Assembly (NCBI GenBank): GCA_022615965.1
Contig: JAKEGG010000007.1
Coordinates: 28,067-92,066 of the forward strand
Source of the DNA: Fusobacteriota bacterium
GTDB taxonomy: Bacteria; Bacillota; TC1
DNA: 64,000 nt
Reading direction: 5' to 3'
The position numbers were made by a program, and so were the translations under genes. This document shows positions 1,926 to 39,905 of the stretch, one piece after another (position 1 is the first letter of the stretch; each line of letters begins with the position of its first letter). The notes under the pieces were generated by a model. That model saw only the letters and a list, made by a program, of their open reading frames with translations. It was not told where the DNA came from and did not search any database.

Positions 1926-2246
1926 TTATTCTCCTGTGTAGTAAATTAATTGTTTTATCTCATTTTTAATAATATCTATATCCTTCAACTGTAATATTTC
2001 ATGAATTTTATTATCCAGATAAAACTTTTCTTTTAGTATTCCTAAGGCAGATTCATAAGTTTGCAGCTCATTTTCACCTTTTACTAAAAAGTCTCTTACA
2101 CCTTGTTTGGTAATACCATAGATTTCTGCTATTTCTGTAAGTGAATAATCTTCATTGTAATGAAGATTCAACACTTCTTTTCTTCTGCCCTTTATTAAAT
2201 TTCCATAAACATCCAGCAATAATGCTATTTTAGTGAATTTCTCCAT
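1926..2246 (-). CDS. ylxM: YlxM/UPF0122 putative helix-turn-helix protein of the ffh operon
   Basis: 106 aa with a sigma-70 region-4-like HTH (YSLTEIAEIYGITKQGVRDFL). Lies immediately upstream of ffh, as in Firmicutes. Confidence 0.85.
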   Translation of the reverse strand: MEKFTKIALLLDVYGNLIKGRRKEVLNLHYNEDYSLTEIAEIYGITKQGVRDFLVKGENELQTYESALGILKEKFYLDNKIHEILQLKDIDIIKNEIKQLIYYTGE

Positions 2247-2282
2247 TTTTACCTCGTAAAGTTATTTAGCTTTACCTATGTC

Positions 2283-2311
2283 ATTATATATGATATCGGG
2301 GTTTAAGTCAA
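2283..2311 (-). promoter_or_regulatory. Consensus sigma-A promoter for ylxM-ffh
   Basis: Minus strand reads TTGACT, a 17 nt spacer, then TATAAT. It is about 37 nt upstream of the ylxM ATG and starts 5 nt after the stop of the preceding gene. Confidence 0.7.
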
Positions 2312-2315
2312 GAAC

Positions 2316-2876
2316 TTATATAGTATCTTTTAGAAAAGCAAAAGGCTTCTTTCCTTCTCTGACCATTCTATCAAACTGTTTAAAGGTAAAAGTGTATATC
2401 TGATCATATAGAGTTAAATGGTACTCATCAAGCTGAAACCTGGAATTATACCTCATCTGAAGAACATCAGAAGGATTTTTATTACCGTTGTAAATAACAA
2501 TGCCCACTTTAGGAAGTTTAAAAAAGTCTAATTTATTGAATTGTATATTCTTGTTTTTTAATATTTTAGCCAGAATAATATATGGACCTTCAGCAAATTT
2601 CAACCTTAGATTTCTCTTTTTATCAGGAGTATCCAGCCTTCCATTTTTAAACTCAATAAAATAGACCTTATCAGCAATATATATAGCATCAGGTGAACAA
2701 GGCATCAATTCCTGGTTCAAGCTATATACGCTGTTTGCAATAGCATCAAAATTGAACATTTTGTTTCTAAGATTGCTTGGATATTCATTATTAGCTGAAT
2801 CAAAAGCTATTTCCTTTAAGGACATATAATATTTATGATAATGTTTATAAAAGATAGTATTGATTTCTTTCAACAA
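2316..2876 (-). CDS. Hypothetical protein with PD-(D/E)xK (restriction-endonuclease-fold) catalytic motif; partner of the upstream ATPase
   Basis: The ORF track gives 2316..2933. I prefer the TTG at 2876: it has GGAGGG 8 nt upstream and lies 1 nt after the ATPase stop. Motif E-x6-PD-x11-E-x-K in NQELMPCSPDAIYIADKVYFIEFK (2646..2711). I recognise no named family. Confidence 0.6.
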   Translation of the reverse strand: MLKEINTIFYKHYHKYYMSLKEIAFDSANNEYPSNLRNKMFNFDAIANSVYSLNQELMPCSPDAIYIADKVYFIEFKNGRLDTPDKKRNLRLKFAEGPYIILAKILKNKNIQFNKLDFFKLPKVGIVIYNGNKNPSDVLQMRYNSRFQLDEYHLTLYDQIYTFTFKQFDRMVREGKKPFAFLKDTI

Positions 2877-2877
2877 C

Positions 2878-3834
2878 TTATTTACCCTCCGTATAATAGA
2901 GTTTAAGATCATCAAGTTTTTCATATGGTTCAAGTAAGGTTGAATAAATTAATTGTAAGTTATTATTCTGGTTAGTAAAAGTATAGCCGTTTTCCAGTTT
3001 TTCACCTAAATAATAATCAGTATTTAATTCATAACTTTTACTATACATTTCTAAAGCTTCAATAAAATAAAGGCTACAGGTATTGATCATCACCTTAACT
3101 TTAAAATACTTGATTATCTTGCTGATAATATGAGCATAGATCAATTGCCATGAAGCATGTGATAGAATTTCTGGTTCATCTAAGATTAATACCATATCTT
3201 CTTGAAGATATCCATTATTTAGAAGTTCCTTTAATATCAAGAATGATTTTATTCCATTCGGCGACTTGTTCATAGAAAGAATAAACTTATTAGAAAGCTG
3301 TAAACCTAAACTATTTGTTTCATCTATATAAACTAATTTGTGTTCTTCGATCACTTCATCAAATAAAAGATTCAATTCTGCTATTTTTTCTAAATCAGCT
3401 TTATTGGTGATAGGAACCTTATTGATTAATTTACATTTCAAATCATTATCATGATCGATTTCACATTTGCTAATTAAAGGCTCATTGACAATCAAAGGTC
3501 CACCAACATAGGTGACGCATTTAATTTCGTTAGATAAGGTTGATTTTATTCTTAAAGGATTGAATGTCAAATTTAATCTTTCATCATTATCAATTAATAA
3601 TGAAACTGAAATATTTTCCGAATCACTATACAGCTGGGGCTTATAAACTTCAGCGTTAATCAATTCTGTAAAACTATCATCATCAAGGTTTAAACCTCTC
3701 AGTGTGATGTAGGTACTTTTGCTGATTAAGCTTTTACCAATTGAATTTGCGCCAACAATAATTGAAAGATTCTTTAAATTTACTTTCGCTTTTGTTATTG
3801 GTCCGATATTTTCCAGTAATAGTTGAATTTTCAT
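2878..3834 (-). CDS. ABC/SMC-like (AAA_15/AAA_21-type) ATPase with no fused effector domain
   Basis: 318 aa. N-terminal strand plus Walker A (LLLENIGPI..IIVGANSIGKS), signature-like SPNGIKS, and Walker B/H-loop MVLILDEPEILSH. ATG lies 9 nt after the purH stop, with GGAGA in between. Confidence 0.8.
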   Translation of the reverse strand: MKIQLLLENIGPITKAKVNLKNLSIIVGANSIGKSLISKSTYITLRGLNLDDDSFTELINAEVYKPQLYSDSENISVSLLIDNDERLNLTFNPLRIKSTLSNEIKCVTYVGGPLIVNEPLISKCEIDHDNDLKCKLINKVPITNKADLEKIAELNLLFDEVIEEHKLVYIDETNSLGLQLSNKFILSMNKSPNGIKSFLILKELLNNGYLQEDMVLILDEPEILSHASWQLIYAHIISKIIKYFKVKVMINTCSLYFIEALEMYSKSYELNTDYYLGEKLENGYTFTNQNNNLQLIYSTLLEPYEKLDDLKLYYTEGK

Positions 3835-3843
3835 ATTTTCTCC

Positions 3844-5343
3844 TTAATGTTTAAAATGTCTTCGATTAGTAAAAACCATTTTAATTTTATTTTTATTGCA
3901 GAATTCAATCAAAGAAGAATCGTTTTTAGACCCTCCAGGTTGAATAATTGATTTTATACCATTATTGCTGGCAAATTCAACACTATCATTAAATGGGAAA
4001 AATGCATCTGATGCCAGAACTGAACCTGAAATATCTAAAAGTGAATTATCTATTGCAGCTTTTAATGCATATACTCTGGCTGTTTGTCCACCTGATACCC
4101 CGGTTAAAACCTTGTCTCTGACTAAAGCAATACCATTTGATTTGATATTTTTAACAATTTTATAGGCAAAAAGTAAATCATCCATTTCAGAATCGCTAGG
4201 CTTATTGACAGTTACATATTTTAATTCTTCATATAAATCAAAATCTCTTGTTTGTTTAAGGAGATATCCATCTAAATCTTTATAGGAAGATTTGTTGAAA
4301 TAATCTAGAGAAAAATATTTAAGTATCCTGATATTTTTTTTAGTTTTTAAGACATCCAGTGCTTCTTTGGTAAAATCTGGTGCAATAAGTATTTCTATGA
4401 AAATTTTATTGATTTCAATAGCAACAGCTTCATCAACCTTATAATTTAAGGCAACAATACCTCCAAATATACCTATAGAGTCACTTTGATAACATTTTTG
4501 ATAACTATCAAGATCATTTATTCCTGCAGCAGCTCCACAAACAGTACTATGTTTTATTGAACATGAAAAGTATTTTTCATCTTTAAAATCATGTAACAGT
4601 TCTAATGCTGCAAAAGTATCATTATAATTGTTATAGGACATTTCTTTTCCCCATAACTGCTCTAAATCCATCATGGACTGTTTATTGAAATCAAGCTTAT
4701 ATATTTCTGCTTCCTGATGAGGATTCTCACCATAACTTAGTTTTTTATTCTCCTCCAACTGCAGATATTCCATATTTTTATTAAAATAACTTGAAATACT
4801 TATATCATAGTTAGCAATTAATTTAAAAGCCTTAGCTGCAAGTCCTCTTCTATATGTTAAATCCAAAGTATTGTTTTGTATCTTATTGATAATATCTGGA
4901 TAATCCTTAGTATCTGTAACTACCACTACATCCTTGTAATTTTTAGCAGCAGCCCTGATTAAGGTTGGACCTCCAATATCAATTTCTTCAATCAGCTTTT
5001 CTTCTTCCAACTTTTGTTCTACAGCTTCCTGGAATTTATAGAGATTTACACAAACCAAATCTATACTTTCAATACCAAATTCCTTAATAGTATGTTGATC
5101 TTTTTCTAAATCACGTCTATATAGTATTCCACCATGTACAAAGGGGTTTAGTGTTTTGACCCTTCCATCTAATATTTCTGGAAATTTAGTTATATCTTCA
5201 ATATTTATAACTGCAATACCAGCCTTATTTAATACAGCAAAGGTTCCTCCAGTAGAAATTATTTCATACCCAGAGTCTATCAGACCCTTGGCAAATTCTA
5301 TGATATTTTCTTTATCAGTTACGCTTATAATTGCTTTTTTCAT
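3844..5343 (-). CDS. purH: Bifunctional AICAR transformylase / IMP cyclohydrolase
   Basis: 499 aa. MGS-like N-domain (ISVTDKENIIEFAKGL..STGGT, DGRVKTLNP) and AICARFT C-domain ending QPGGSKND..RHFKH. Confidence 0.95.
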   Translation of the reverse strand: MKKAIISVTDKENIIEFAKGLIDSGYEIISTGGTFAVLNKAGIAVINIEDITKFPEILDGRVKTLNPFVHGGILYRRDLEKDQHTIKEFGIESIDLVCVNLYKFQEAVEQKLEEEKLIEEIDIGGPTLIRAAAKNYKDVVVVTDTKDYPDIINKIQNNTLDLTYRRGLAAKAFKLIANYDISISSYFNKNMEYLQLEENKKLSYGENPHQEAEIYKLDFNKQSMMDLEQLWGKEMSYNNYNDTFAALELLHDFKDEKYFSCSIKHSTVCGAAAGINDLDSYQKCYQSDSIGIFGGIVALNYKVDEAVAIEINKIFIEILIAPDFTKEALDVLKTKKNIRILKYFSLDYFNKSSYKDLDGYLLKQTRDFDLYEELKYVTVNKPSDSEMDDLLFAYKIVKNIKSNGIALVRDKVLTGVSGGQTARVYALKAAIDNSLLDISGSVLASDAFFPFNDSVEFASNNGIKSIIQPGGSKNDSSLIEFCNKNKIKMVFTNRRHFKH

Positions 5344-5363
5344 AAAAACCTCCTTATACTAAT

Positions 5364-5393
5364 AGGAAGTAATAACAAGAGTTACTACTTCCT
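5364..5393 (-). terminator. Imperfect 13-bp hairpin between galU and purH (weak terminator or processing site)
   Basis: AGGAAGTAATAAC/GTTACTACTTCCT stem with one mismatch and a 4-nt loop. No clean U-tract follows. Confidence 0.3.
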
Positions 5394-5406
5394 AAAACAT
5401 AACAAA

Positions 5407-6270
5407 TTAAATTTTTTCTTTCAAGTATTTCAACAAATCCTCTTTTATATCTTCTCTTCGCAATCCAAAATCTACAATGGTCTTCAGATATCCTAGAAGA
5501 TTCCCAGTATCATACCTTTCTCCTGGAAATATATAACCATACATCTTTTCAAAGGCAACTAAATTATTCATCGCATCTGTAAGTTGTATTTCTCCTCCTT
5601 TTCCAGGCTTTGTTTCTTCGATCAAATCAAATATTTTAGAAGTAAAAACATATCTTCCCATCACAGCTAAATTAGTTGGGGCTGACATTGGATCTGGCTT
5701 TTCTACCAGAGACTTTATTTCATAGGTAGACTCATCAATTTTATAACCATCTATGATCCCATATTTATTGACATCTGAAAAATCAACCTTCAGCAAAGCA
5801 AAAACACTACTTTTCCTTTTTTCATATTCAGAAATTAAGGCTCCAAGACAGTTTTTTTCTTGATGATAATAGAGATCGTCTCCTAATAATACAGCAAAAG
5901 GTTCATTTTTAACAAACTCTTTAGCTATACCAACTGCATGACCCAACCCTTTAGGTTGCTGTTGTCTGATAAAATATATCTTAGCTAATTTACTGATAGG
6001 CTTTATAATATTTAATAATTCTTCATTACCTTTTTCTGCTAATATATTTTCTAATTCATAGGAAACATCAAAATGATTTTCAATAGCTTCCTTGCCTCTG
6101 TTTGTAATAATTAGTATTTCTTCAATACCTGCCTCAACTGCCTCTTCAACAATATATTGAATAGCTGGTTTATCTAAAATTGGTAGCATTTCTTTAGGTA
6201 CTGCCTTGGTTGCAGGTAATACTCTTGTTCCAAGTCCAGCGGCAGGGATAATTGCTTTTCTTACTTTCAT
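5407..6270 (-). CDS. galU: UTP-glucose-1-phosphate uridylyltransferase
   Basis: 287 aa. KAIIPAAGLGTRVLPATKAVPKEMLP is the GalU/GtaB signature. Confidence 0.93.
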   Translation of the reverse strand: MKVRKAIIPAAGLGTRVLPATKAVPKEMLPILDKPAIQYIVEEAVEAGIEEILIITNRGKEAIENHFDVSYELENILAEKGNEELLNIIKPISKLAKIYFIRQQQPKGLGHAVGIAKEFVKNEPFAVLLGDDLYYHQEKNCLGALISEYEKRKSSVFALLKVDFSDVNKYGIIDGYKIDESTYEIKSLVEKPDPMSAPTNLAVMGRYVFTSKIFDLIEETKPGKGGEIQLTDAMNNLVAFEKMYGYIFPGERYDTGNLLGYLKTIVDFGLRREDIKEDLLKYLKEKI

Positions 6271-6271
6271 C

Positions 6272-7495
6272 TTATTTATTTTTATCTCCTAATTTAAATT
6301 TATCATGAATGATTTTTACAGCATCTTTGGCATTGGCGGCATCAACAATACAAGATACCTTGATTTCAGAAGTACTGATTAATTCAATATTAATCCCAGC
6401 ATTTGCCAAGGCTTCGAACATAGTGGCTGCAACCCCAGGATTTGACTGCATACCTGCTCCAACAATACTGATTTTTGCTAATTTATCTCTTGTATTAATA
6501 CCTTCAGCATTAACCTCTTCCTTGATCTTTTCAACAACCTGAACTGCCTTTTTTTGCTCTTCTTGACTTACTGTAAAAGAAATGTCATTTATTGTACCTC
6601 TAGGATTGCTTTGAACGATCATATCAACATTGATATTATTATCTGCTAGGGCTCTAAAAAGGCTTCCTGCTATTCCTGGAACATCTGGTACTCCATATAT
6701 TGTAATTTTAGCCACATTTAAATCATGAGCTACCCCACTAACCAATCTAACTCTTTCCATTGCTGAACCCTCCTCTACTATTGTACCTTCATTGTTGTTA
6801 AAACTTGACTTTACAGCTACTCTTACTTTATGTTGTTTTGCATATTCAACTGCTCTGGTTTGTAGTACCAATGCTCCAAGACTAGCTAATTCAAGCATTT
6901 CATCATAAGAAACAAAGTCTAACTTACTGGCATTTGGGACAATTCTTGGATCAGCTGTATATACTCCATCTACATCAGTATATATTTCACAAACATCTGC
7001 TTTTACTGCTGCTGCAACTGCAACTGCTGTAGTATCAGAACCACCTCTGCCCAGAGTAGTAATTTCACCACCTTCTGTTTTACCTTGAAAGCCTGCTACT
7101 ATAACTATTTTTCCAGCTTCTATTTCTCTTTTTAATCTAGTATTATCTATTCTGGTTATTTTGGCCTTTTTATGTACAGTATCAGTATATATTCCTGCCT
7201 GTGCTCCTGTCAGTGATACCACCTCATAGCCTTTTTCTTTAATTGCCATTGAAAGCAGGGAAATTGAAACCTGTTCACCTGTAGCCAGTAACATATCCAT
7301 TTCTCTACTTGAAGGATTTCTAGTAATTTGGGCAGCTAAATCTAATAGTTCATCAGTTGAATCACCCATAGCTGAAACTACTGTAATTACAGAATTACCT
7401 TTATTTTTAGTAGCAATTATTCTTTCAGCTACATTAATAATTCTTTCTGGTGAACCTACAGATGTTCCCCCATATTTCTGTACTATTATTCCCAT
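6272..7495 (-). CDS. lysC: Aspartate kinase
   Basis: 407 aa. VQKYGGTSV N-terminus, GRGGSDTTA, and two C-terminal ACT domains. Confidence 0.93.
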   Translation of the reverse strand: MGIIVQKYGGTSVGSPERIINVAERIIATKNKGNSVITVVSAMGDSTDELLDLAAQITRNPSSREMDMLLATGEQVSISLLSMAIKEKGYEVVSLTGAQAGIYTDTVHKKAKITRIDNTRLKREIEAGKIVIVAGFQGKTEGGEITTLGRGGSDTTAVAVAAAVKADVCEIYTDVDGVYTADPRIVPNASKLDFVSYDEMLELASLGALVLQTRAVEYAKQHKVRVAVKSSFNNNEGTIVEEGSAMERVRLVSGVAHDLNVAKITIYGVPDVPGIAGSLFRALADNNINVDMIVQSNPRGTINDISFTVSQEEQKKAVQVVEKIKEEVNAEGINTRDKLAKISIVGAGMQSNPGVAATMFEALANAGINIELISTSEIKVSCIVDAANAKDAVKIIHDKFKLGDKNK

Positions 7496-7506
7496 TTTTC
7501 AACTCC

Positions 7507-8817
7507 TTAATATTCTTTTTCTGATCTTATCAATGATTTAATTTCTTTTACAACTTCCAGGTTTTCAATTTGAACTTTTGCATTCATCATATTTTTGTTT
7601 AAGACTTTATCAGTTAAAATAACTAGCTCAGCTAGATTATTTTCTAGTTTTTTCTGAATAACAGAATCGATGCTCACATCATTATCTGCAAAAGCTTCAG
7701 TGATTTTACTTAAGACTCTGGTTCTATCTAGAACTATCATCCTGATATAGAAATGTGTCAAAGTATCTTCAATTTCCATGATTTCTGTATCCAGATAACA
7801 TGATCTGTTTTCATAGCTGAAAATATTTCTGTTCATATCTTTGACAATTGATAATAAGTCAGCAACAACAGCGCTTGCTGTAGGCAGACTTCCAGCTCCT
7901 TTGCCAATTAAGGTCAAGTCACCAAATGCGTTTCCTTCAATGTATATGGCATTATAGACATCATCTACTTTAGCTAAAGGATGAGACATAGGTAAAAGAG
8001 TTGGATGTACTCTTACTTCTATGCCTTGTTCATTGTTGACAGCAATACCTAATAGCTTGATTGTACTATTGAATAATTTAGCATAATTAACATCATCCAC
8101 ACTAATTGCAGTAATACCTTCTACATAAACATCATTTAGTACCACACTTCTATTAAAAGCAATTGAGGCTAACACCGCAATTTTCCTTGCTGCATCCAAA
8201 CCTTCTATATCTGAAGTTGGATCTGCTTCCGCATAACCTAATTCCTGAGCTTCTTTAAGTACGTCCTTTAAATCTCTATCTTCATTGAACATCTTAGTCA
8301 GGATAAAGTTGGTAGTTCCATTTATTATGCCCATTACTTTGGTGATCTTATTGCTGAGAATATTCTCTTTTATTGTGCTGATGATAGGAATAGCACCAGC
8401 AACACTAGCCTCGTAACGAATTTGTCTACCTGCCTTATTTCCTAAGTCCAGTAATTCCTGGGCATTTATTGCCATAAGATCTTTATTTGCTGTTACTATG
8501 TGTTTACCATTTAATAAGGCTTTTTTTATATAATCCTGGGCTTTGGTTGTGCCTCCGATAACTTCAATTATTATATCGATATTTTCATCATTTAAAATTT
8601 CATCAGGATCAGTAGTTAAGAGCTCCTGAGGTATATTTGGTCTTTTTTTATTAATATCATTAACCAATATTTTTGTGATTTCCAAATTAGTATTATTTAA
8701 CACTGGTTGATACTTATCTCTATTCATCTGTAGAAGATTGTAAACACCTTGGCCAACTGTTCCACAGCCTAATAAACCTATTTTAATATTTTGAACCTTA
8801 TTCATCTTATTACTCAC
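7507..8817 (-). CDS. hom: Homoserine dehydrogenase
   Basis: 436 aa. GLLGCGTVG NAD-binding site, catalytic domain, and C-terminal ACT domain. Confidence 0.9.
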   Translation of the reverse strand: MSNKMNKVQNIKIGLLGCGTVGQGVYNLLQMNRDKYQPVLNNTNLEITKILVNDINKKRPNIPQELLTTDPDEILNDENIDIIIEVIGGTTKAQDYIKKALLNGKHIVTANKDLMAINAQELLDLGNKAGRQIRYEASVAGAIPIISTIKENILSNKITKVMGIINGTTNFILTKMFNEDRDLKDVLKEAQELGYAEADPTSDIEGLDAARKIAVLASIAFNRSVVLNDVYVEGITAISVDDVNYAKLFNSTIKLLGIAVNNEQGIEVRVHPTLLPMSHPLAKVDDVYNAIYIEGNAFGDLTLIGKGAGSLPTASAVVADLLSIVKDMNRNIFSYENRSCYLDTEIMEIEDTLTHFYIRMIVLDRTRVLSKITEAFADNDVSIDSVIQKKLENNLAELVILTDKVLNKNMMNAKVQIENLEVVKEIKSLIRSEKEY

Positions 8818-9799
8818 TTTCCATTTTCATTTCCCTGCTCATCAAATCTTTAAAGCTGATAAGAGGGTTTTTACCCTCGTATATAGTTTTATATACTTCC
8901 TCTGTTATAGGAAGCTCAATATTTTTTTTCTTGGCAATTAAATAAAAGGCTTTGGTAGCGTATACACCTTCTGTAACCATTGAAGTATTAGCTAATATCT
9001 CCTCACTTTTTAAGCCTGAGCCAATCTTTTCACCAAAACCTCTGTTTCTGCTATGTTTACTCATACAGGTTACAATCAAATCTCCAACACCAGTAAGACC
9101 ATTAAAAGTATTTTCATCTGCTCCTAATATTCTACCTAATACTTTCATTTCATGAAGTCCTCTGGTTATCAAAGCAGCCTTAGCATTATCACCAAACCTT
9201 AGTCCATCAACTGCACCTGCGGCTATGGCTACTACATTTTTAAATGATCCACCTAATTCTACACCTATGGTATCTGTGCTAGTATAAACTCTTAGAACAT
9301 TATTATTGAAAATCATCTGTATTTTTTTGGCAATATTGATATCATCACTGGCTGATACAATTGCTGCAGGTAATTCTCTGGCAACTTCTTCAGCATGAGT
9401 TGGCCCAGAAAGTACACAGTACTTATATTTATTATCAGATACTTCTGATACAATCTCTGAAATTCTCTTGCCTGATTCAATTTCAAAGCCTTTGGCTACG
9501 TTGATAATTATCTTATCTTTACTGGTTATATTAACAATTTTGCTTATAAATTCTCTAATGTATGGTGATGGAACAGCAATAACCAAATATTCATTTTCAA
9601 CTGCCTCTGCTAAGTTAGTTGTGATATTTATTTCACTTGGTATGTTGATCCCCGGTAAAAAAGGATGACTTTTTGTTTCTCTGATCATCTCTGTATTATC
9701 TTCAACTCTACCGTAGAGACAAACCTCATGACCATTTTTTTGAAGATGAATAGCCAGTGCCGTACCCCAGGTGCCAATACCTATTACTGTAAGCTTCAT
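8810..9799 (-). CDS. gpsA: NAD(P)H-dependent glycerol-3-phosphate dehydrogenase
   Basis: 329 aa. GIGTWGTALA Rossmann motif plus GDLIVTCMSKHSRNRGFG. Confidence 0.93.
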   Translation of the reverse strand: MKLTVIGIGTWGTALAIHLQKNGHEVCLYGRVEDNTEMIRETKSHPFLPGINIPSEINITTNLAEAVENEYLVIAVPSPYIREFISKIVNITSKDKIIINVAKGFEIESGKRISEIVSEVSDNKYKYCVLSGPTHAEEVARELPAAIVSASDDINIAKKIQMIFNNNVLRVYTSTDTIGVELGGSFKNVVAIAAGAVDGLRFGDNAKAALITRGLHEMKVLGRILGADENTFNGLTGVGDLIVTCMSKHSRNRGFGEKIGSGLKSEEILANTSMVTEGVYATKAFYLIAKKKNIELPITEEVYKTIYEGKNPLISFKDLMSREMKMESE

Positions 9800-9801
9800 T
9801 T

Positions 9802-11127
9802 CTATTTTTCTCCCTTTTTATTCTGAAAAAACAATCTTATTGGCGTTCCTTTAAAACTAAAGGCTTCTCTAAATTTATTTTCAATATATCTTTTATAGGA
9901 AAAATGTACCAAATTATCATCATTGACAAACAAGGCAAAAGAAGGTGGCTTGATTTTAATTTGCGTAACATAATATATTTTAAGATTTTTACCTTTATCC
10001 TTTGATGGTGGATTATATGATACTATCTCTCGAATCAATTGATTCAATAATGAAGTTTCAATCTTTCTATTACAATTCTCATTTACTTCATCAATCAAAG
10101 GAAATAAATCATAAATTCTTTTACCTGATAATGCTGATATAAAGACTATTGGAGCATAGCTTAAAAATTTCAATTCATCTCTTATGTCTTCTTCAAAGGC
10201 TTTCATGGTTTTACTATCTTTAGTTACCAGATCCCATTTATTAACAACTATAATGATACCTTTACCTTTTTCAAAAGCAAAGCCTGCAACCTTTTTATCC
10301 TGCTCTGTAACTCCTTCAAGTGCGTCAATTAAAAGTAAAGTGATGTCTGATCTTTCTATAGCCTTTAATGATCTGATGATAGTATACCTTTCTATAGGAT
10401 CTCCAACTTTAGATTTTCTTCTGATACCAGCTGTATCAATAAAGGTATACGGTTTGTTAAAATACATTATCTTTTGGTCAACAGCATCTCTGGTCGTTCC
10501 TGAAATATTGCTGACAATTACTCTGTCTTCATTAGATAATTTATTTACTAATGAAGATTTACCGACATTTGGTCTGCCTATGATAGCTACTTTTAATGAT
10601 GGATCATCATCTTCATTTTTATCTATTTCAAAGAAATGGCTGGTTATCTCATCTAATAAATCACCCATATTTGCTCCATGAACAGCAGAGATAGGAATTG
10701 GTTCTCCAAGTCCTAAGGAGTAAAATTCATAGGCATTGCTTTTATTGAAGTTATCCGTTTTATTTACAGTAAGAACAACAGGTTTATTAGTTTTCTTTAA
10801 AATATTGGCTATCTTTTGGTCATCTGATGTGATACCAATAGTATTATCAACAACCATCAAAATTACATCTGCTTCAGTTATAGCTATTTCAGCCTGCTTA
10901 GTAATCGATAAACTAATATCTTCTTTTTCCCATTGGATTCCACCAGTATCTATTACTATAAAGTTATGCTTTTGCCAATTTGCTTCATCATATAATCTAT
11001 CTCTGGTCACACCTGGAAAATCATCTACAATTGACTTTCTTTCACCAACAAATCTATTGAATATCGTTGACTTTCCTACATTTGGCCTTCCTACTATAGC
11101 TAATACTGGTTTCATTTTTTTCTCCAC
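9802..11127 (-). CDS. der: Ribosome-associated GTPase Der (EngA)
   Basis: 441 aa with tandem G domains (GRPNVGKST twice, DTGG/DTAG, NKxD) and a KH-like C-terminus. The start may be the internal MKPVLAIVG. Confidence 0.95.
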   Translation of the reverse strand: MEKKMKPVLAIVGRPNVGKSTIFNRFVGERKSIVDDFPGVTRDRLYDEANWQKHNFIVIDTGGIQWEKEDISLSITKQAEIAITEADVILMVVDNTIGITSDDQKIANILKKTNKPVVLTVNKTDNFNKSNAYEFYSLGLGEPIPISAVHGANMGDLLDEITSHFFEIDKNEDDDPSLKVAIIGRPNVGKSSLVNKLSNEDRVIVSNISGTTRDAVDQKIMYFNKPYTFIDTAGIRRKSKVGDPIERYTIIRSLKAIERSDITLLLIDALEGVTEQDKKVAGFAFEKGKGIIIVVNKWDLVTKDSKTMKAFEEDIRDELKFLSYAPIVFISALSGKRIYDLFPLIDEVNENCNRKIETSLLNQLIREIVSYNPPSKDKGKNLKIYYVTQIKIKPPSFALFVNDDNLVHFSYKRYIENKFREAFSFKGTPIRLFFQNKKGEK

Positions 11128-27194: not shown

Positions 27195-28877
27195 TTACAC
27201 TTTTTTACTATTGTTTGCAAATTTCAACATTTCCATACTTTGCTCTCTGGCAGTTGTAAAGTTATCTGATCCACCTTGCATTCTACTTAATTCATCTATG
27301 ATTTCTAATTCATTTAAAAGAGGATAGATATTCACTAGTATTCTACCATCTGACTCTACTTTCCTTACTGAATTTATTTTATCTGCAAAGGCAGCAATAA
27401 TTGGAGAATGAGTGACACAGATAACCTGTTTATTTAGACTGATCAAATTTAATGCTTCTGCAATTTTAAGTAAGGTCTCTCCCCCTATGCCAGCATCGAT
27501 TTCATCGAATATTAAAGTAGATATATAATCTAATTCTGCAAACAGCTCTTTAAAAGCCAGCATTACTCTTGAAACTTCTCCACCTGAGGCTATTTTACGT
27601 AAAGGCATCAGGTTTTCACCTTTGTTGGCAGAGAATAAAAACTCAACTTCAACAGAACCATTTATAGTTGATTTATCTAATCTATCTATTTTGATTCTAA
27701 ATCCATCTTTATAGATATTTAATCTGCCAAGTTTATCTTTTATACTATTTTCAATTTCTTCTTTGCCCTTAACTCTTAATTCAAATATTCTTTTCGCAAG
27801 TTCAAAATATTCGTCCTGATATAAGTTGATTTTTTCTTGTAACTGATTTAAATAGCTATTCTTATCTTCATATTTATTAATCAAATCCTTCATTTCCAAT
27901 AATTTGCTGTTGATATCATTTATATTTTTACCATATTTTAATTTTAAATTACTTATTTCATTTAAACGTATTTCAATTTCATTTAACTTCTCTTCATCAT
28001 ATTCTAAATTTTGAGAATATACTCTGAATTCTTTATATATATCTTCAAATTCATATAAAATATTTTCAGTTCTTGCTAAAAGTGGCTCCATTGAAGAATC
28101 TACTTTTTCCATTTCTTGCATGGAAAAAATCACAGTATTGAGACTATCTAATAATTTACCATGAACCTCCTGATTTACAGTAGCAGACAACTTATATAGT
28201 TTTTCCGAATTAGCTATTCTGTTTCTTTCTTCCTTTAATTGTAGATCTTCATCTACCTTTAACTCAGCAGCAGAGATTTCTTTAACAGCATATTGATAAT
28301 AATCGTACAAGTCATTTTTCCTATTTTCCTGTTGATTTATTTCATCAAATTCAGATGTTAGTTTATAAATATTAAGATAATTGATTTTTATCTCATCAAG
28401 AAAATCTTTGACTTTTTCATCCTTAGAAATATATTTATCAAGAAGTTCAAGTTGCTTTTCTTTTTTCATAATACTTTGTTCTTGATTTTGTCCATGTATT
28501 TCAAATAAGTTTGACCCAAACTCCTGATAGATATTCAAGGGAACTGTTTTATAATTGATTTTACATTTATTGCTGCCATTTGTAGTGATTTCTCTGGACA
28601 TAACTAAAGTATCATCAGAAATATGAAGATAATCAAGTTTGTTCAACTTATCTTTCACTTCAGTATCTAATTCAAAAATACCTTCTACTAAAGCTTTTTC
28701 AGATCCCTTTCTAATGAAGTCACTGTTAGCTCTATTGCCACAAAGCAAGCCAATTGAATCTAATAATAATGATTTTCCAGCACCAGTTTCTCCAGTTAAA
28801 ACATTCAGTCCTGAATCAAATTCTACTAATATATTATCTATTAAGGCAAAGCTTTCTATTTTTAATTCTTTTAACAT
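27195..28877 (-). CDS. recN: DNA repair protein RecN
   Basis: SMC-like: LTGETGAGKSLLLDSI Walker A, a long coiled coil, and C-terminal signature/Walker B (FDEIDAGIGG). The start is taken at MLKELKIESF (the track start 28898 would overlap argR). Confidence 0.93.
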   Translation of the reverse strand: MLKELKIESFALIDNILVEFDSGLNVLTGETGAGKSLLLDSIGLLCGNRANSDFIRKGSEKALVEGIFELDTEVKDKLNKLDYLHISDDTLVMSREITTNGSNKCKINYKTVPLNIYQEFGSNLFEIHGQNQEQSIMKKEKQLELLDKYISKDEKVKDFLDEIKINYLNIYKLTSEFDEINQQENRKNDLYDYYQYAVKEISAAELKVDEDLQLKEERNRIANSEKLYKLSATVNQEVHGKLLDSLNTVIFSMQEMEKVDSSMEPLLARTENILYEFEDIYKEFRVYSQNLEYDEEKLNEIEIRLNEISNLKLKYGKNINDINSKLLEMKDLINKYEDKNSYLNQLQEKINLYQDEYFELAKRIFELRVKGKEEIENSIKDKLGRLNIYKDGFRIKIDRLDKSTINGSVEVEFLFSANKGENLMPLRKIASGGEVSRVMLAFKELFAELDYISTLIFDEIDAGIGGETLLKIAEALNLISLNKQVICVTHSPIIAAFADKINSVRKVESDGRILVNIYPLLNELEIIDELSRMQGGSDNFTTAREQSMEMLKFANNSKKV

Positions 28878-32014: not shown

Positions 32015-32090
32015 AGGGGAGTAGCTCAACTGGTAGAGTAGTGGTCTCCAAAACCATTGGTTGCGGGTTCGATTCCTGTCTCCCCTGCCA
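32015..32090 (+). tRNA. trnW: tRNA-Trp (anticodon CCA), CCA-encoded
   Basis: Hand-folded cloverleaf: acceptor AGGGGAG/CTCCCCT, anticodon loop CTCCAAA, T-loop GGTTCGATTCC, discriminator G, then CCA. Confidence 0.93.
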
Positions 32091-35278: not shown

Positions 35279-35302
35279 GTTTATTCACCTCTAAAAATAA
35301 TT

Positions 35303-35845
35303 TGGTGGTAGTATATACAGTAAATTTTGCGGCTTAGGTCAAGTAGGCTTTCCCACTATTCTACAATCTGTTACCAAAATTGCAATTTCTTTTTAAAGAA
35401 TAGCTTGTCTGTCACCATAAACAAAACTTGATTACCACTTAGCTTGCACTTTAATCCCATATATACATCAGCCTAGAAGTTTTCCTTAACAGCAATTATA
35501 AATTCTTATCCTCTTTTGCAAATAGAATTTCATCGTCTATCTTCCAACTTCGGCCTGACGTCGAAAGACAGCTTGTTAGAATCCCTTCTGATTCGCTCAA
35601 GGCGAGCTACACTGTTTTTAGGTTAGCTCCCCACAAACAGGTTTACTTAAGTTTCCTTAAGCCTCCACGGTAGTAGGGACAAGTTTTACATGCCATTGCA
35701 AGTTGCCCTAGCTGCCTTAACCTCCAATACAACCCTAAACTGGGCGTCTAAAGCTAATATCAGAGACTTCATCGTTATGCTCTTTAGTGGATTTTTAGCC
35801 CCACCTTCCAAATAAATAATACTGACTAGGATACTGTAACCACCA
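35303..35845 (-). ncRNA. ole: Probable OLE (ornate, large, extremophilic) RNA
   Basis: About 540 nt with no ORF and visibly more G+C than its flanks. The 5' TGGTGGT-TACAGTA pairs with the 3' TACTGTA-(6 nt)-ACCACCA. Internal helices include CTTAAG-GAAA-CTTAAG (35646..35661) and TAGGG.CAA/TTG.CCCTA (35674..35710). Synteny with oapA-like-dxs-tlyA...nadK-argR-recN matches the published OLE locus. Not verified with a covariance model. Confidence 0.7.
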
Positions 35846-35847
35846 TA

Positions 35848-35883
35848 TTTTTTAAAACAAAAAGAAGCTGGTTAACCAGCTTC
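35848..35883 (-). terminator. Intrinsic terminator after rpmF
   Basis: Perfect 8-bp stem GAAGCTGG/CCAGCTTC around the palindromic TTAA tetraloop (20-nt palindrome GAAGCTGGTTAACCAGCTTC), followed by TTTTTGTTTT. Confidence 0.8.
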
Positions 35884-39743: not shown

Positions 39744-39905
39744 AAAAAAACCCTCAGGAACGTTTCCTAAGGGTTTTGAATGCTAAAAACATATCTTCTC
39801 TCATCCAGACTTTACTGTCGGCTCTAGAATTTCACTAGATCAGCATTTGCTCGCGGGCTTTACCGCCGGTAAGGAATTACACCTAACCCTGAAGAAACTA
39901 TTATT
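39744..39905 (-). promoter_or_regulatory. FMN riboswitch (RFN element) with intrinsic terminator
   Basis: Minus strand reads CTTCAGGGTTAGGTGTAATTCCTTACCGGCGGTAAAGCCCGCGAGC...AGCCGACAGTAAAGTCTGGATGAGAGAAGA, which matches the RFN core. It is followed by the terminator AAAACCCTTAGGAAACGTTCCTGAGGGTTTTTTT. Confidence 0.92.

Follow-up and report, generated by a model that had tools for sequence, protein, structure and literature searches.

The 64,000-nucleotide (nt) stretch analysed here (the window, meaning the whole of positions 28,067 to 92,066 of contig JAKEGG010000007.1 in assembly GCA_022615965.1) carries a two-gene ATPase-nuclease pair on its reverse strand, placed between purH and the ylxM-ffh operon; unless stated otherwise, all coordinates below refer to this strand (-) of the window. 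Gene 1 (2878..3834, ATG start) encodes a 318-amino-acid (aa) ABC-type ATPase of the short AAA_15/AAA_21 form, and gene 2 (2316..2876, TTG start) encodes a 186-aa predicted PD-(D/E)xK-type nuclease effector. The pair behaves like a core gene of its lineage and not like a recent insertion, sharing one chromosomal junction, a pace of divergence and a strength of purifying selection with the housekeeping genes around it. By analogy with validated anti-phage systems of similar make-up, we lean on balance towards a module in which an ATP-gated sensor or regulator ATPase would control a PD-(D/E)xK nuclease effector, and which is fixed and streamlined in this lineage and probably expressed from the purH operon through translational coupling.

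Fixation of the pair in an uncultured lineage

All lineage members with enough flanking sequence display the gene order der-gpsA-hom-ask-galU-purH-ATPase-gene 2-ylxM-ffh-rpsP-khpA-rimM-trmD-rplS. The loci compared are L001/L008, L002, L003, L004, L006, L007, L009, L010, L011, L012, L055 and L056, with L003, L011 and L012 lying on shorter contigs whose local order agrees over the length available. They were located through the pair itself, a procedure that favours carriers and could miss members without it. The only variation in this order is a vanZ-like gene between gene 2 and ylxM in L002 and L003, which form one branch of the lineage. In that branch, the VanZ-like gene is 195 aa long (region 8001..9250 in L002, 1769..3018 in L003), and gene 2 extends to 220 aa through a 34-aa low-complexity C-terminal extension.

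The identities of the two proteins to their counterparts in the window run parallel to those of neighbouring core genes. For gene 2, identity is 65-70% in most relatives (73% over a partial match in L011) and 58% in L004, the most distant branch of the lineage; the corresponding values are 48-52% and 38% for the ATPase, 62-70% and 53% for YlxM, 67-72% and 65% for Ffh, and 52-59% and 48% for PurH. The ratio of nonsynonymous to synonymous substitution rates (dN/dS), determined on close genome pairs with unsaturated dS (0.5-1.3), is 0.03-0.05 for gene 2 and 0.07-0.09 for the ATPase, within the span set by Ffh (0.03), Hom (0.04-0.05) and PurH (0.10-0.11). Furthermore, the GC content of the pair, both overall and at third codon positions (GC3), matches that of the neighbours. 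Synteny, parallel divergence and GC content together rule out recent horizontal transfer, while conservation and dN/dS exclude the possibility that gene 2 or the pair is an annotation artefact or non-coding.

An earlier note on this DNA, made from the sequence alone, had read the layout as an insertion into a housekeeping junction. This proposal has to be given up, as the pair occupies the same purH|ylxM junction in every sampled member of the lineage, diverges in step with its neighbours and is under equally strong purifying selection, a pattern that the note itself had named as decisive against it. Conservation across the clade refutes a wedged-in insertion, and not the biochemical type of the pair. 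The comparison with an empty site that had also been suggested gave no informative empty purH|ylxM junction in a YlxM-based scan of metagenome contigs, which returned one lineage member (L012, with the pair present) and 39 distant organisms (YlxM identity at most 51%) in which ylxM is preceded by neither purH nor the pair. Unsampled members of the lineage may possibly have lost the pair. In a sample biased towards carriers, the marks of a mobile island (patchy spread, empty sites, odd composition, mobility genes or repeats) were absent. Lineage-type gene 2 occurs in only 6 of 185,579 GTDB species representatives, all of them uncultured metagenome-assembled genomes (MAGs) labelled Bacillota, 'Eubacteriales' or, doubtfully, Fusobacteria.

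Decay in a ciliate endosymbiont

One member of the lineage, endosymbiont TC1 of Trimyema compressum (CP014606.1, locus L055), serves as a natural loss experiment in a ciliate endosymbiont. Its genome, sequenced with PacBio at 839x coverage, has been described as undergoing reduction (PMC5034148). The TC1 locus is syntenic with the rest of the lineage, and within L055 4746..7556 purH, the ATPase gene and gene 2 have all decayed into pseudogenes whose coding sequences are split between two or three reading frames, beside intact galU (95% identical to L056), ylxM (87%) and ffh (95%). A bacterium living inside a host cell can therefore do without the pair, and the pseudogenes rule out an essential housekeeping gene. 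Partial damage is seen elsewhere as well. In L004, a related 888-kb contig, purH is frameshifted and gene 2 carries D63N, a 6-aa deletion and a C-terminal frameshift, while gene 2 of L056 carries E75K, a position at which the sister sequence P0337 retains Glu. The TC1 decay is in keeping with a function that is useful only under some conditions, for example defence, and speaks against an essential one.

An ABC-type ATPase with two altered catalytic positions

Judging from its sequence and modelled structure, gene 1 encodes an ABC-type ATPase of the AAA_15/AAA_21 clade, akin to PtuA, AriA, OLD and HEC-02A. The earlier note had likewise described an SMC/RecF/ABC-like ATPase of the anti-phage type, an assignment on which PADLOC, a profile search of the Protein Data Bank (PDB) and structural comparison of an AlphaFold2 (AF2) model with Foldseek agree. 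In Pfam, the match to AAA_15 (E 2.5e-4, 21.2 bits) does not reach the gathering cut-off of 32.1, though lineage homologues carry precomputed PF13175 and PF13304 matches; NCBIfam returned no match to gene 1. In PADLOC, gene 1 matched 33 ATPase families, the best being HEC-02A (PDLC04214; E 3.3e-15, 54 bits, partial coverage), followed by PD-T4-4_A (1.6e-14), with PtuA, AriA and others ranking lower. A profile of the ATPase family retrieved retron and Septu PtuA, PARIS AriA and an OLD-family protein from the PDB at 1e-9 to 1e-6. Moreover, the AF2 model (predicted local distance difference test, pLDDT, 91.8; predicted template-modelling score, pTM, 0.91) displays the ABC head fold, with an N-terminal beta-barrel-like sheet and a RecA-like core, and aligns with the heads of PtuA, Rad50, SMC and GajA (E 1e-10 to 1e-8, probability 1.00, TM-score ~0.5).

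The nucleotide-binding motifs are well preserved. In the Walker A motif GANSIGKS (G28 to S35; 3730..3753), G28, N30, G33, K34 and S35 are invariant in alignments of 23 and of 38 ATPases. The Walker B motif LILDEPE (3169..3189) continues into H226 of a family DEPExxxH motif (3157..3189 in all), with D219, E220, E222 and H226 invariant. Here, the Walker B part of the earlier description was correct, but the 'EILSH' taken for the H-loop was not: its histidine, H226, belongs to the DEPExxxH motif, and the H-loop position is occupied by C253 in N-T-C253-S (3073..3084). This segment aligns with 'SHSP' or 'THS' of mobile relatives and of retron PtuA, and C253 lies 33 residues past the Walker B Glu, the canonical ABC spacing.

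Two positions depart from ABC ATPases in this way, as the signature position, P-N193-G-I-K in the alignment (3247..3261), has Asn for Ser. All 17 lineage ATPases read PNG(I/L)K, against (A/S)(S/T)GIK in six aligned mobile relatives, and 16 of the 17 have Cys at the H-loop position (L004 has Ser), where the mobile relatives have SHSP. Neither the signature Ser nor the H-loop His of ABC ATPases is thus found in gene 1 or its lineage. In addition, lineage ATPases are without two inserts present in relatives of 430-440 aa, one of ~120 aa that follows the Walker A helix and another that is shorter. The signature Ser and H-loop His of ABC ATPases contact the gamma-phosphate or the catalytic water. 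Because of the Cys at the H-loop and the Asn in place of the signature Ser, the lineage ATPase is predicted still to bind ATP but to hydrolyse it slowly.

A predicted nuclease without a family model

Gene 2 was described in the earlier note as belonging to no nameable family, and it indeed has no match in Pfam, NCBIfam or PADLOC. A word-indexed search yielded only 24 clusters, 23 of them close, and an exhaustive profile search yielded at least 626 clusters at 50% identity (E<=1e-3), 103 of them at E<=1e-10. Nearly all members of this family are 170-200 aa long and were matched over their full length.

Conservation within the family is concentrated in a catalytic-type core, S61-P-D63 ... E75-F-K77-N78, which alignment and model place on a predicted beta-hairpin (2646..2690). 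In an alignment of 145 family representatives, D63 is kept in 144 and E75, F76 and K77 in all 145, followed by K93 (142/145; 2598-2600), D44 (141/145, with Glu in the other four; 2745-2747), D26 (139/145; 2799-2801) and N78 (134/145); the span from K93 to D26, which includes the core and these three further near-invariant residues, covers 2598..2801. D63, E75 and K77 are likewise invariant in the family alignment A3, at an overall identity of 20-40%. The PD-(D/E)xK motif pointed out in the earlier note therefore stands in its D63 ... E75-x-K77 part and falls in its first Glu (E56), which is not conserved beyond the close lineage; variation of the D/E/K residues among homologues, which the note had said would speak against its proposal, was not observed.

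The AF2 model of gene 2 (pLDDT 87) contains two strands, 64-67 with D63 at its start and 71-77 bearing E75-x-K77, followed by a helix at 84-95, an arrangement that fits the canonical PD-(D/E)xK core. Modelled in this way, gene 2 would share with NERD, VRR-NUC, Hjc and type II restriction endonucleases a D...(D/E)xK motif on a hairpin followed by a helix. Foldseek searches of the PDB and BFVD returned nothing at E<=1e-3 (best in the PDB, MunI, E 0.057 and TM-score 0.24; best in BFVD, E 1.3e-3), with TM-scores of 0.24-0.36, so that what is used as evidence is solely how enriched nuclease folds are at the top of the lists. The top matches are mostly PD-(D/E)xK proteins, including MunI, PspGI, HincII, XPF and bunyaviral and arenaviral cap-snatching endonucleases, further a T7-endonuclease-I-like protein and entries titled 'restriction endonuclease'. 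Matches of the family profile to PDB sequences were at chance level (for example PylC, E 0.017) and were discarded.

Sub-threshold Pfam matches across the family point the same way: they are to NERD, VRR_NUC, Hjc, CoiA_nuc and L_protein_N, and the single unrelated one is to a phosphatase-like domain (E 0.18). Among 42 family members compared with PADLOC, nine, all distant from the window protein, weakly matched HEC-02B models (best E 3.4e-7, over the catalytic core only), and Cas4c was the sole other nuclease family matched. Within the PD-(D/E)xK superfamily, the family reaches no family threshold and has conserved extras of its own, namely D26, N29, D44, an 'EFKN' box with F76 and N78, and K93. 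A nuclease fold is thus probable, not proven, on the combined evidence of sequence and model.

Relatives in mobile, defence and housekeeping settings

The earlier note had asked whether homologous pairs co-occur and whether they sit in defence islands elsewhere, and both are borne out. An AAA_15/AAA_21 ATPase lies directly upstream of the gene 2 relative at all lineage loci and in 7 of 7 distant contexts (338-440 aa), among which are a BREX locus, Tn7-like cargo, an integrase island and a provirus. In L005, the ATPase (437 aa), which matches HEC-02A at 1.2e-35, lies in a BREX locus between a pglX-type methyltransferase and pglZ, and the pair adjoins a Septu-like PDC-M01 pair, a Fic protein and another ABC ATPase. 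The pair in L054 (ATPase 428 aa) belongs to Tn7-like cargo behind TnsA/B/C/TniQ, that in L053 (440 aa) adjoins a phage-type integrase, and that in L057 (about 420-430 aa) is on an IMG/VR provirus contig. The other relatives stand elsewhere: L052 (430 aa) in Aliarcobacter between fecR and a TonB-dependent receptor; L059/L060 (435 aa; pair at 4707..6651) in gut Blautia after smc-ftsY, the signal recognition particle (SRP) receptor operon; and L061 (338 aa, with a 176-aa partner; 4992..6531) between purE/grx (glutaredoxin) and glyQ. The repeated closeness of such pairs to SRP or purine genes may be a coincidence. A search of IMG/VR gave two weak loci only, one with an ATPase upstream.

At the four junctions of mobile relatives that were read, the two genes overlap by 8 nt in three and are 17 nt apart in L053. 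The ends of the ATPase and partner genes overlap in L061 too, and the smc-ftsY placement recurs on many Blautia contigs, in one of which the ATPase is split. The neighbours of the BREX-embedded pair were also recorded: the PDC-M01 A and B matches score E 1.8e-207 and 4e-103, the additional ABC ATPase has a small partner, and these extras occupy 8601..10989 and 13484..16335 of L005, all between the methyltransferase and pglZ.

Comparison with known ATPase-nuclease systems

The closest counterparts are two experimentally studied systems. HEC-02 (Hma-embedded candidate 02) joins an ABC ATPase to a NERD-like PD-(D/E)xK nuclease and lowers plaquing by orders of magnitude, with both genes needed (Payne et al., bioRxiv 10.1101/2024.01.29.577857). 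Like the window pair, it consists of two genes, a short ABC ATPase (PADLOC model of ~338 positions) followed by a nuclease, the latter of ~170 aa with a (D/E/Q)xK motif. The window ATPase matches HEC-02A, whereas the window gene 2 does not match HEC-02B even at E<=1. Moreover, HEC-02 is embedded in a defence system whereas the window pair is chromosomally fixed, and the window ATPase differs in its Cys at the H-loop and its Asn at the signature Ser. PD-T4-4, which combines an AAA_15/P-loop ATPase with a PD-(D/E)xK nuclease, was functionally selected in E. coli and sits on an element resembling integrative and conjugative elements (ICE-like; Vassallo et al. 2022, PMC9519451). Its PD-T4-4_A models span 460-474 positions against 318 aa in the window ATPase, its genomic setting differs, and PD-T4-4_B is matched neither by the window gene 2 nor by any of the 42 family members, so that the likeness does not extend to both partners.

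More distantly, Septu PtuA-PtuB, retron I-A PtuAB, PARIS AriA-AriB and OLD/Gabija GajA contain ATPases of the same clade and share the logic of an ATPase coupled to a nuclease effector. Their partners are HNH (PtuB), DUF4435/TOPRIM (AriB) or fused TOPRIM (OLD, GajA) modules, in contrast to the PD-(D/E)xK partner predicted in the window, and the PtuA, AriA, OLD and GajA ATPases are 100-250 aa larger, with helical inserts absent from the window ATPase.

The combination of an ATPase with a PD-(D/E)xK nuclease is therefore already known and validated, whereas the gene 2 family is a new, unmodelled branch. Calling the module uncharacterised, as the earlier note did, is apt for a nuclease family absent from Pfam, NCBIfam and PADLOC and not for the architecture, known from HEC-02 and PD-T4-4. 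By analogy, the window pair is best described as a HEC-02/PD-T4-4-like ATPase and nuclease pair with a predicted function; anti-phage activity that needs both genes is on record for the HEC-02 representative alone. The pair resembles a sister of these two validated systems, and without a Pfam, NCBIfam or PADLOC model for gene 2 current defence finders miss it.

Proposed function and alternative explanations

In the reading towards which we lean, which follows the proposals made for HEC-02, PD-T4-4, Septu and PARIS, the ATPase would bind ATP via its intact Walker A and B motifs and form a complex that holds or licenses the nuclease. A cue derived from phage or DNA would shift the state of the ATPase, whereupon the D63/E75/K77 site would cut nucleic acid and so either halt the invader or abort the infected cell. 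We infer the complex, the trigger, the substrate and the defence phenotype; the motifs, the pairing, the synteny, the selection and the decay in TC1 are observed. On the evolutionary side, an ancestor of the uncultured Bacillota lineage that includes the Trimyema endosymbiont TC1 probably acquired the module. It then settled, coupled in translation, at the end of the ...galU-purH transcription unit, and strong purifying selection has accompanied its vertical inheritance since. The module of this lineage is streamlined by loss of the ATPase insert, and the Cys at the H-loop and the Asn at the signature position should make its ATPase more of an ATP-bound switch than a motor.

Several observations weigh against a defence function of this kind. 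Defence systems usually turn over quickly, and long vertical retention with a housekeeping-like dN/dS is atypical of them. Since the sample was gathered by means of the pair, non-carriers may also have escaped it. The changes at the H-loop and signature may mean that the ATPase no longer works like its mobile relatives. On the side of the nuclease, gene 2 matches none of the defence hidden Markov models, and its best structural match, MunI, is weak. Furthermore, the decay in TC1 is no specific sign of defence, because purH decayed too and the TC1 genome erodes generally.

One alternative explanation is that a defence-derived pair was co-opted for a constitutive DNA or RNA task, such as repair, processing or quality control, in a core operon with purH. 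The pair keeps one junction in a lineage with differences of 28-35% between Ffh proteins, its dN/dS is as low as that of Ffh, its translation is coupled to that of purH while neither a promoter nor a terminator of its own is evident, and the remodelling of the ATPase (insert loss, H-loop His to Cys, signature Ser to Asn) is conserved lineage-wide; other relatives also lie among housekeeping genes (L061 between purE/grx and glyQ, Blautia after smc-ftsY). Yet the pair is pseudogenised in TC1 and gene 2 is damaged in L004 and L056 while flanking core genes are intact, so the function is dispensable at least inside the host cell. Moreover, no link to a known pathway was found, and small defence or toxin cassettes are frequent between housekeeping genes. 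We consider such a co-option unlikely, if worth keeping in view. Its more specific form, in which a re-tooled slow ATP switch makes the pair a core-genome element with a constitutive nucleic-acid function instead of or besides defence, dispensable only in a eukaryotic host cell, likewise strikes us as rather improbable; on this view the cassette entered the core genome of an uncultured, deep lineage of Bacillota by domestication and has stayed at the end of the purH unit for family-level evolutionary time.

A selfish addiction module of the toxin-antitoxin type, in which the ATPase restrains a nuclease toxin and the pair persists since loss of the ATPase kills, would explain why a tiny two-gene unit without mobility genes of its own occurs at many unrelated sites with its genes in tight translational coupling, and related ABC ATPases do restrain toxic partners (PARIS AriA is titled 'AriA antitoxin' in the PDB). 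Addiction alone, however, would not hold purifying selection on a toxin, and yet of the two partners gene 2 is the better conserved (dN/dS 0.03-0.05), with a catalytic triad intact in most members, and the decay of both genes in TC1 indicates that loss is possible; we rate this explanation as quite unlikely. That the ATPase serves another partner, such as a transporter or an SMC-like function, and that gene 2 is a non-catalytic accessory with structural D/E/K residues, appears very improbable. The structural similarity of gene 2 to nucleases does not reach significance, and Rad50 and SMC heads as well as an ABC-transporter ATPase are among the matches to the ATPase fold, but the conservation of D63, E75 and K77 in 144-145 of 145 representatives, alongside that of N78, D44 and K93, at 20-40% identity is the pattern of an active site. 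Additionally, the pair has no membrane component or coiled coil, and in sequence the ATPase is closest throughout to defence ATPases that have a nuclease as partner.

The pair represents a rare case of a defence-type module behaving like a core gene, at the same locus, at an Ffh-like rate and with two altered catalytic positions in its ATPase. It offers a test case for the roles of ATP hydrolysis and ATP binding in such sensors, and for how defence modules become fixed or domesticated.

Locus architecture and neighbouring elements

Both open reading frames, their start codons, the Walker A and B motifs, the 9-nt and 1-nt spacers, the GGAGGG element and the position of the ylxM promoter given in the earlier note were all confirmed from the sequence. 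Upstream, purH (3844..5343), the conserved neighbour and probable operon partner, ends in TAA and is separated from the ATPase gene by 9 nt (GGAGAAAAT, 3835..3843) that contain a GGAGA ribosome-binding site; L001, L002 and L056 have a similar short GGAG-bearing spacer. The ATPase TAA is followed by a single G and the TTG of gene 2, whose GGAGGG ribosome-binding site lies within the 3' end of the ATPase gene, 8 nt upstream of the TTG (2885..2890), and a spacing of 1-3 nt between the two genes is kept throughout the lineage. A longer mechanical reading frame for gene 2, up to 2933, is possible; since all relatives open at an equivalent 'MLK', with ATG 1-3 nt past the ATPase stop, the TTG at this position is taken as the start.

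Downstream, the ylxM-ffh promoter, TTGACT-17-TATAAT (2311..2283, 11/12 match), forms the limit of the transcription unit of the pair. It begins at the fifth base past the gene 2 stop, with four bases between, and is followed by ylxM-ffh-rpsP. Promoter-like hexamers are equally frequent in shuffles of this AT-rich stretch; the -35 box is, however, kept in six relatives and a -10-like box in 7 of 8 aligned, and as sequence evidence for the promoter this conservation is better than the hexamer match alone. No terminator-like site was found after gene 2.

In agreement with the earlier note, the pair has no notable flanking repeats, only short AT-rich matches judged to be chance, and no tRNA gene nearby, the single one in the window (32015..32087, +) being far away. 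A 16-nt inverted repeat, 94% complementary, brackets the cassette with arms in ylxM (2213..2228) and purH (3956..3971), ~90-120 nt from either end; it is probably a chance occurrence in AT-rich DNA.

Between the -10 box and the ribosome-binding site of ylxM lies a leader hairpin, GTAAAG-N8-CTTTAC (2256..2275, -), both arms of which are identical in 9 of 9 aligned loci, including L002 with its vanZ-like gene before ylxM. At the 5' end of the ylxM-ffh mRNA, the hairpin may serve as a stem-loop for stabilisation or regulation, with no covariation to judge by. Farther off, the window holds a full-length OLE (ornate large extremophilic) RNA (35289..35858, -; 396.9 bits against Rfam RF01071). OLE RNA is confined to certain anaerobic Firmicutes, and its presence supports a Bacillota origin of the MAG, against the NCBI label 'Fusobacteria bacterium'. 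A flavin mononucleotide (FMN) riboswitch (39789..39900, -; 117.5 bits) is likewise far from the pair.

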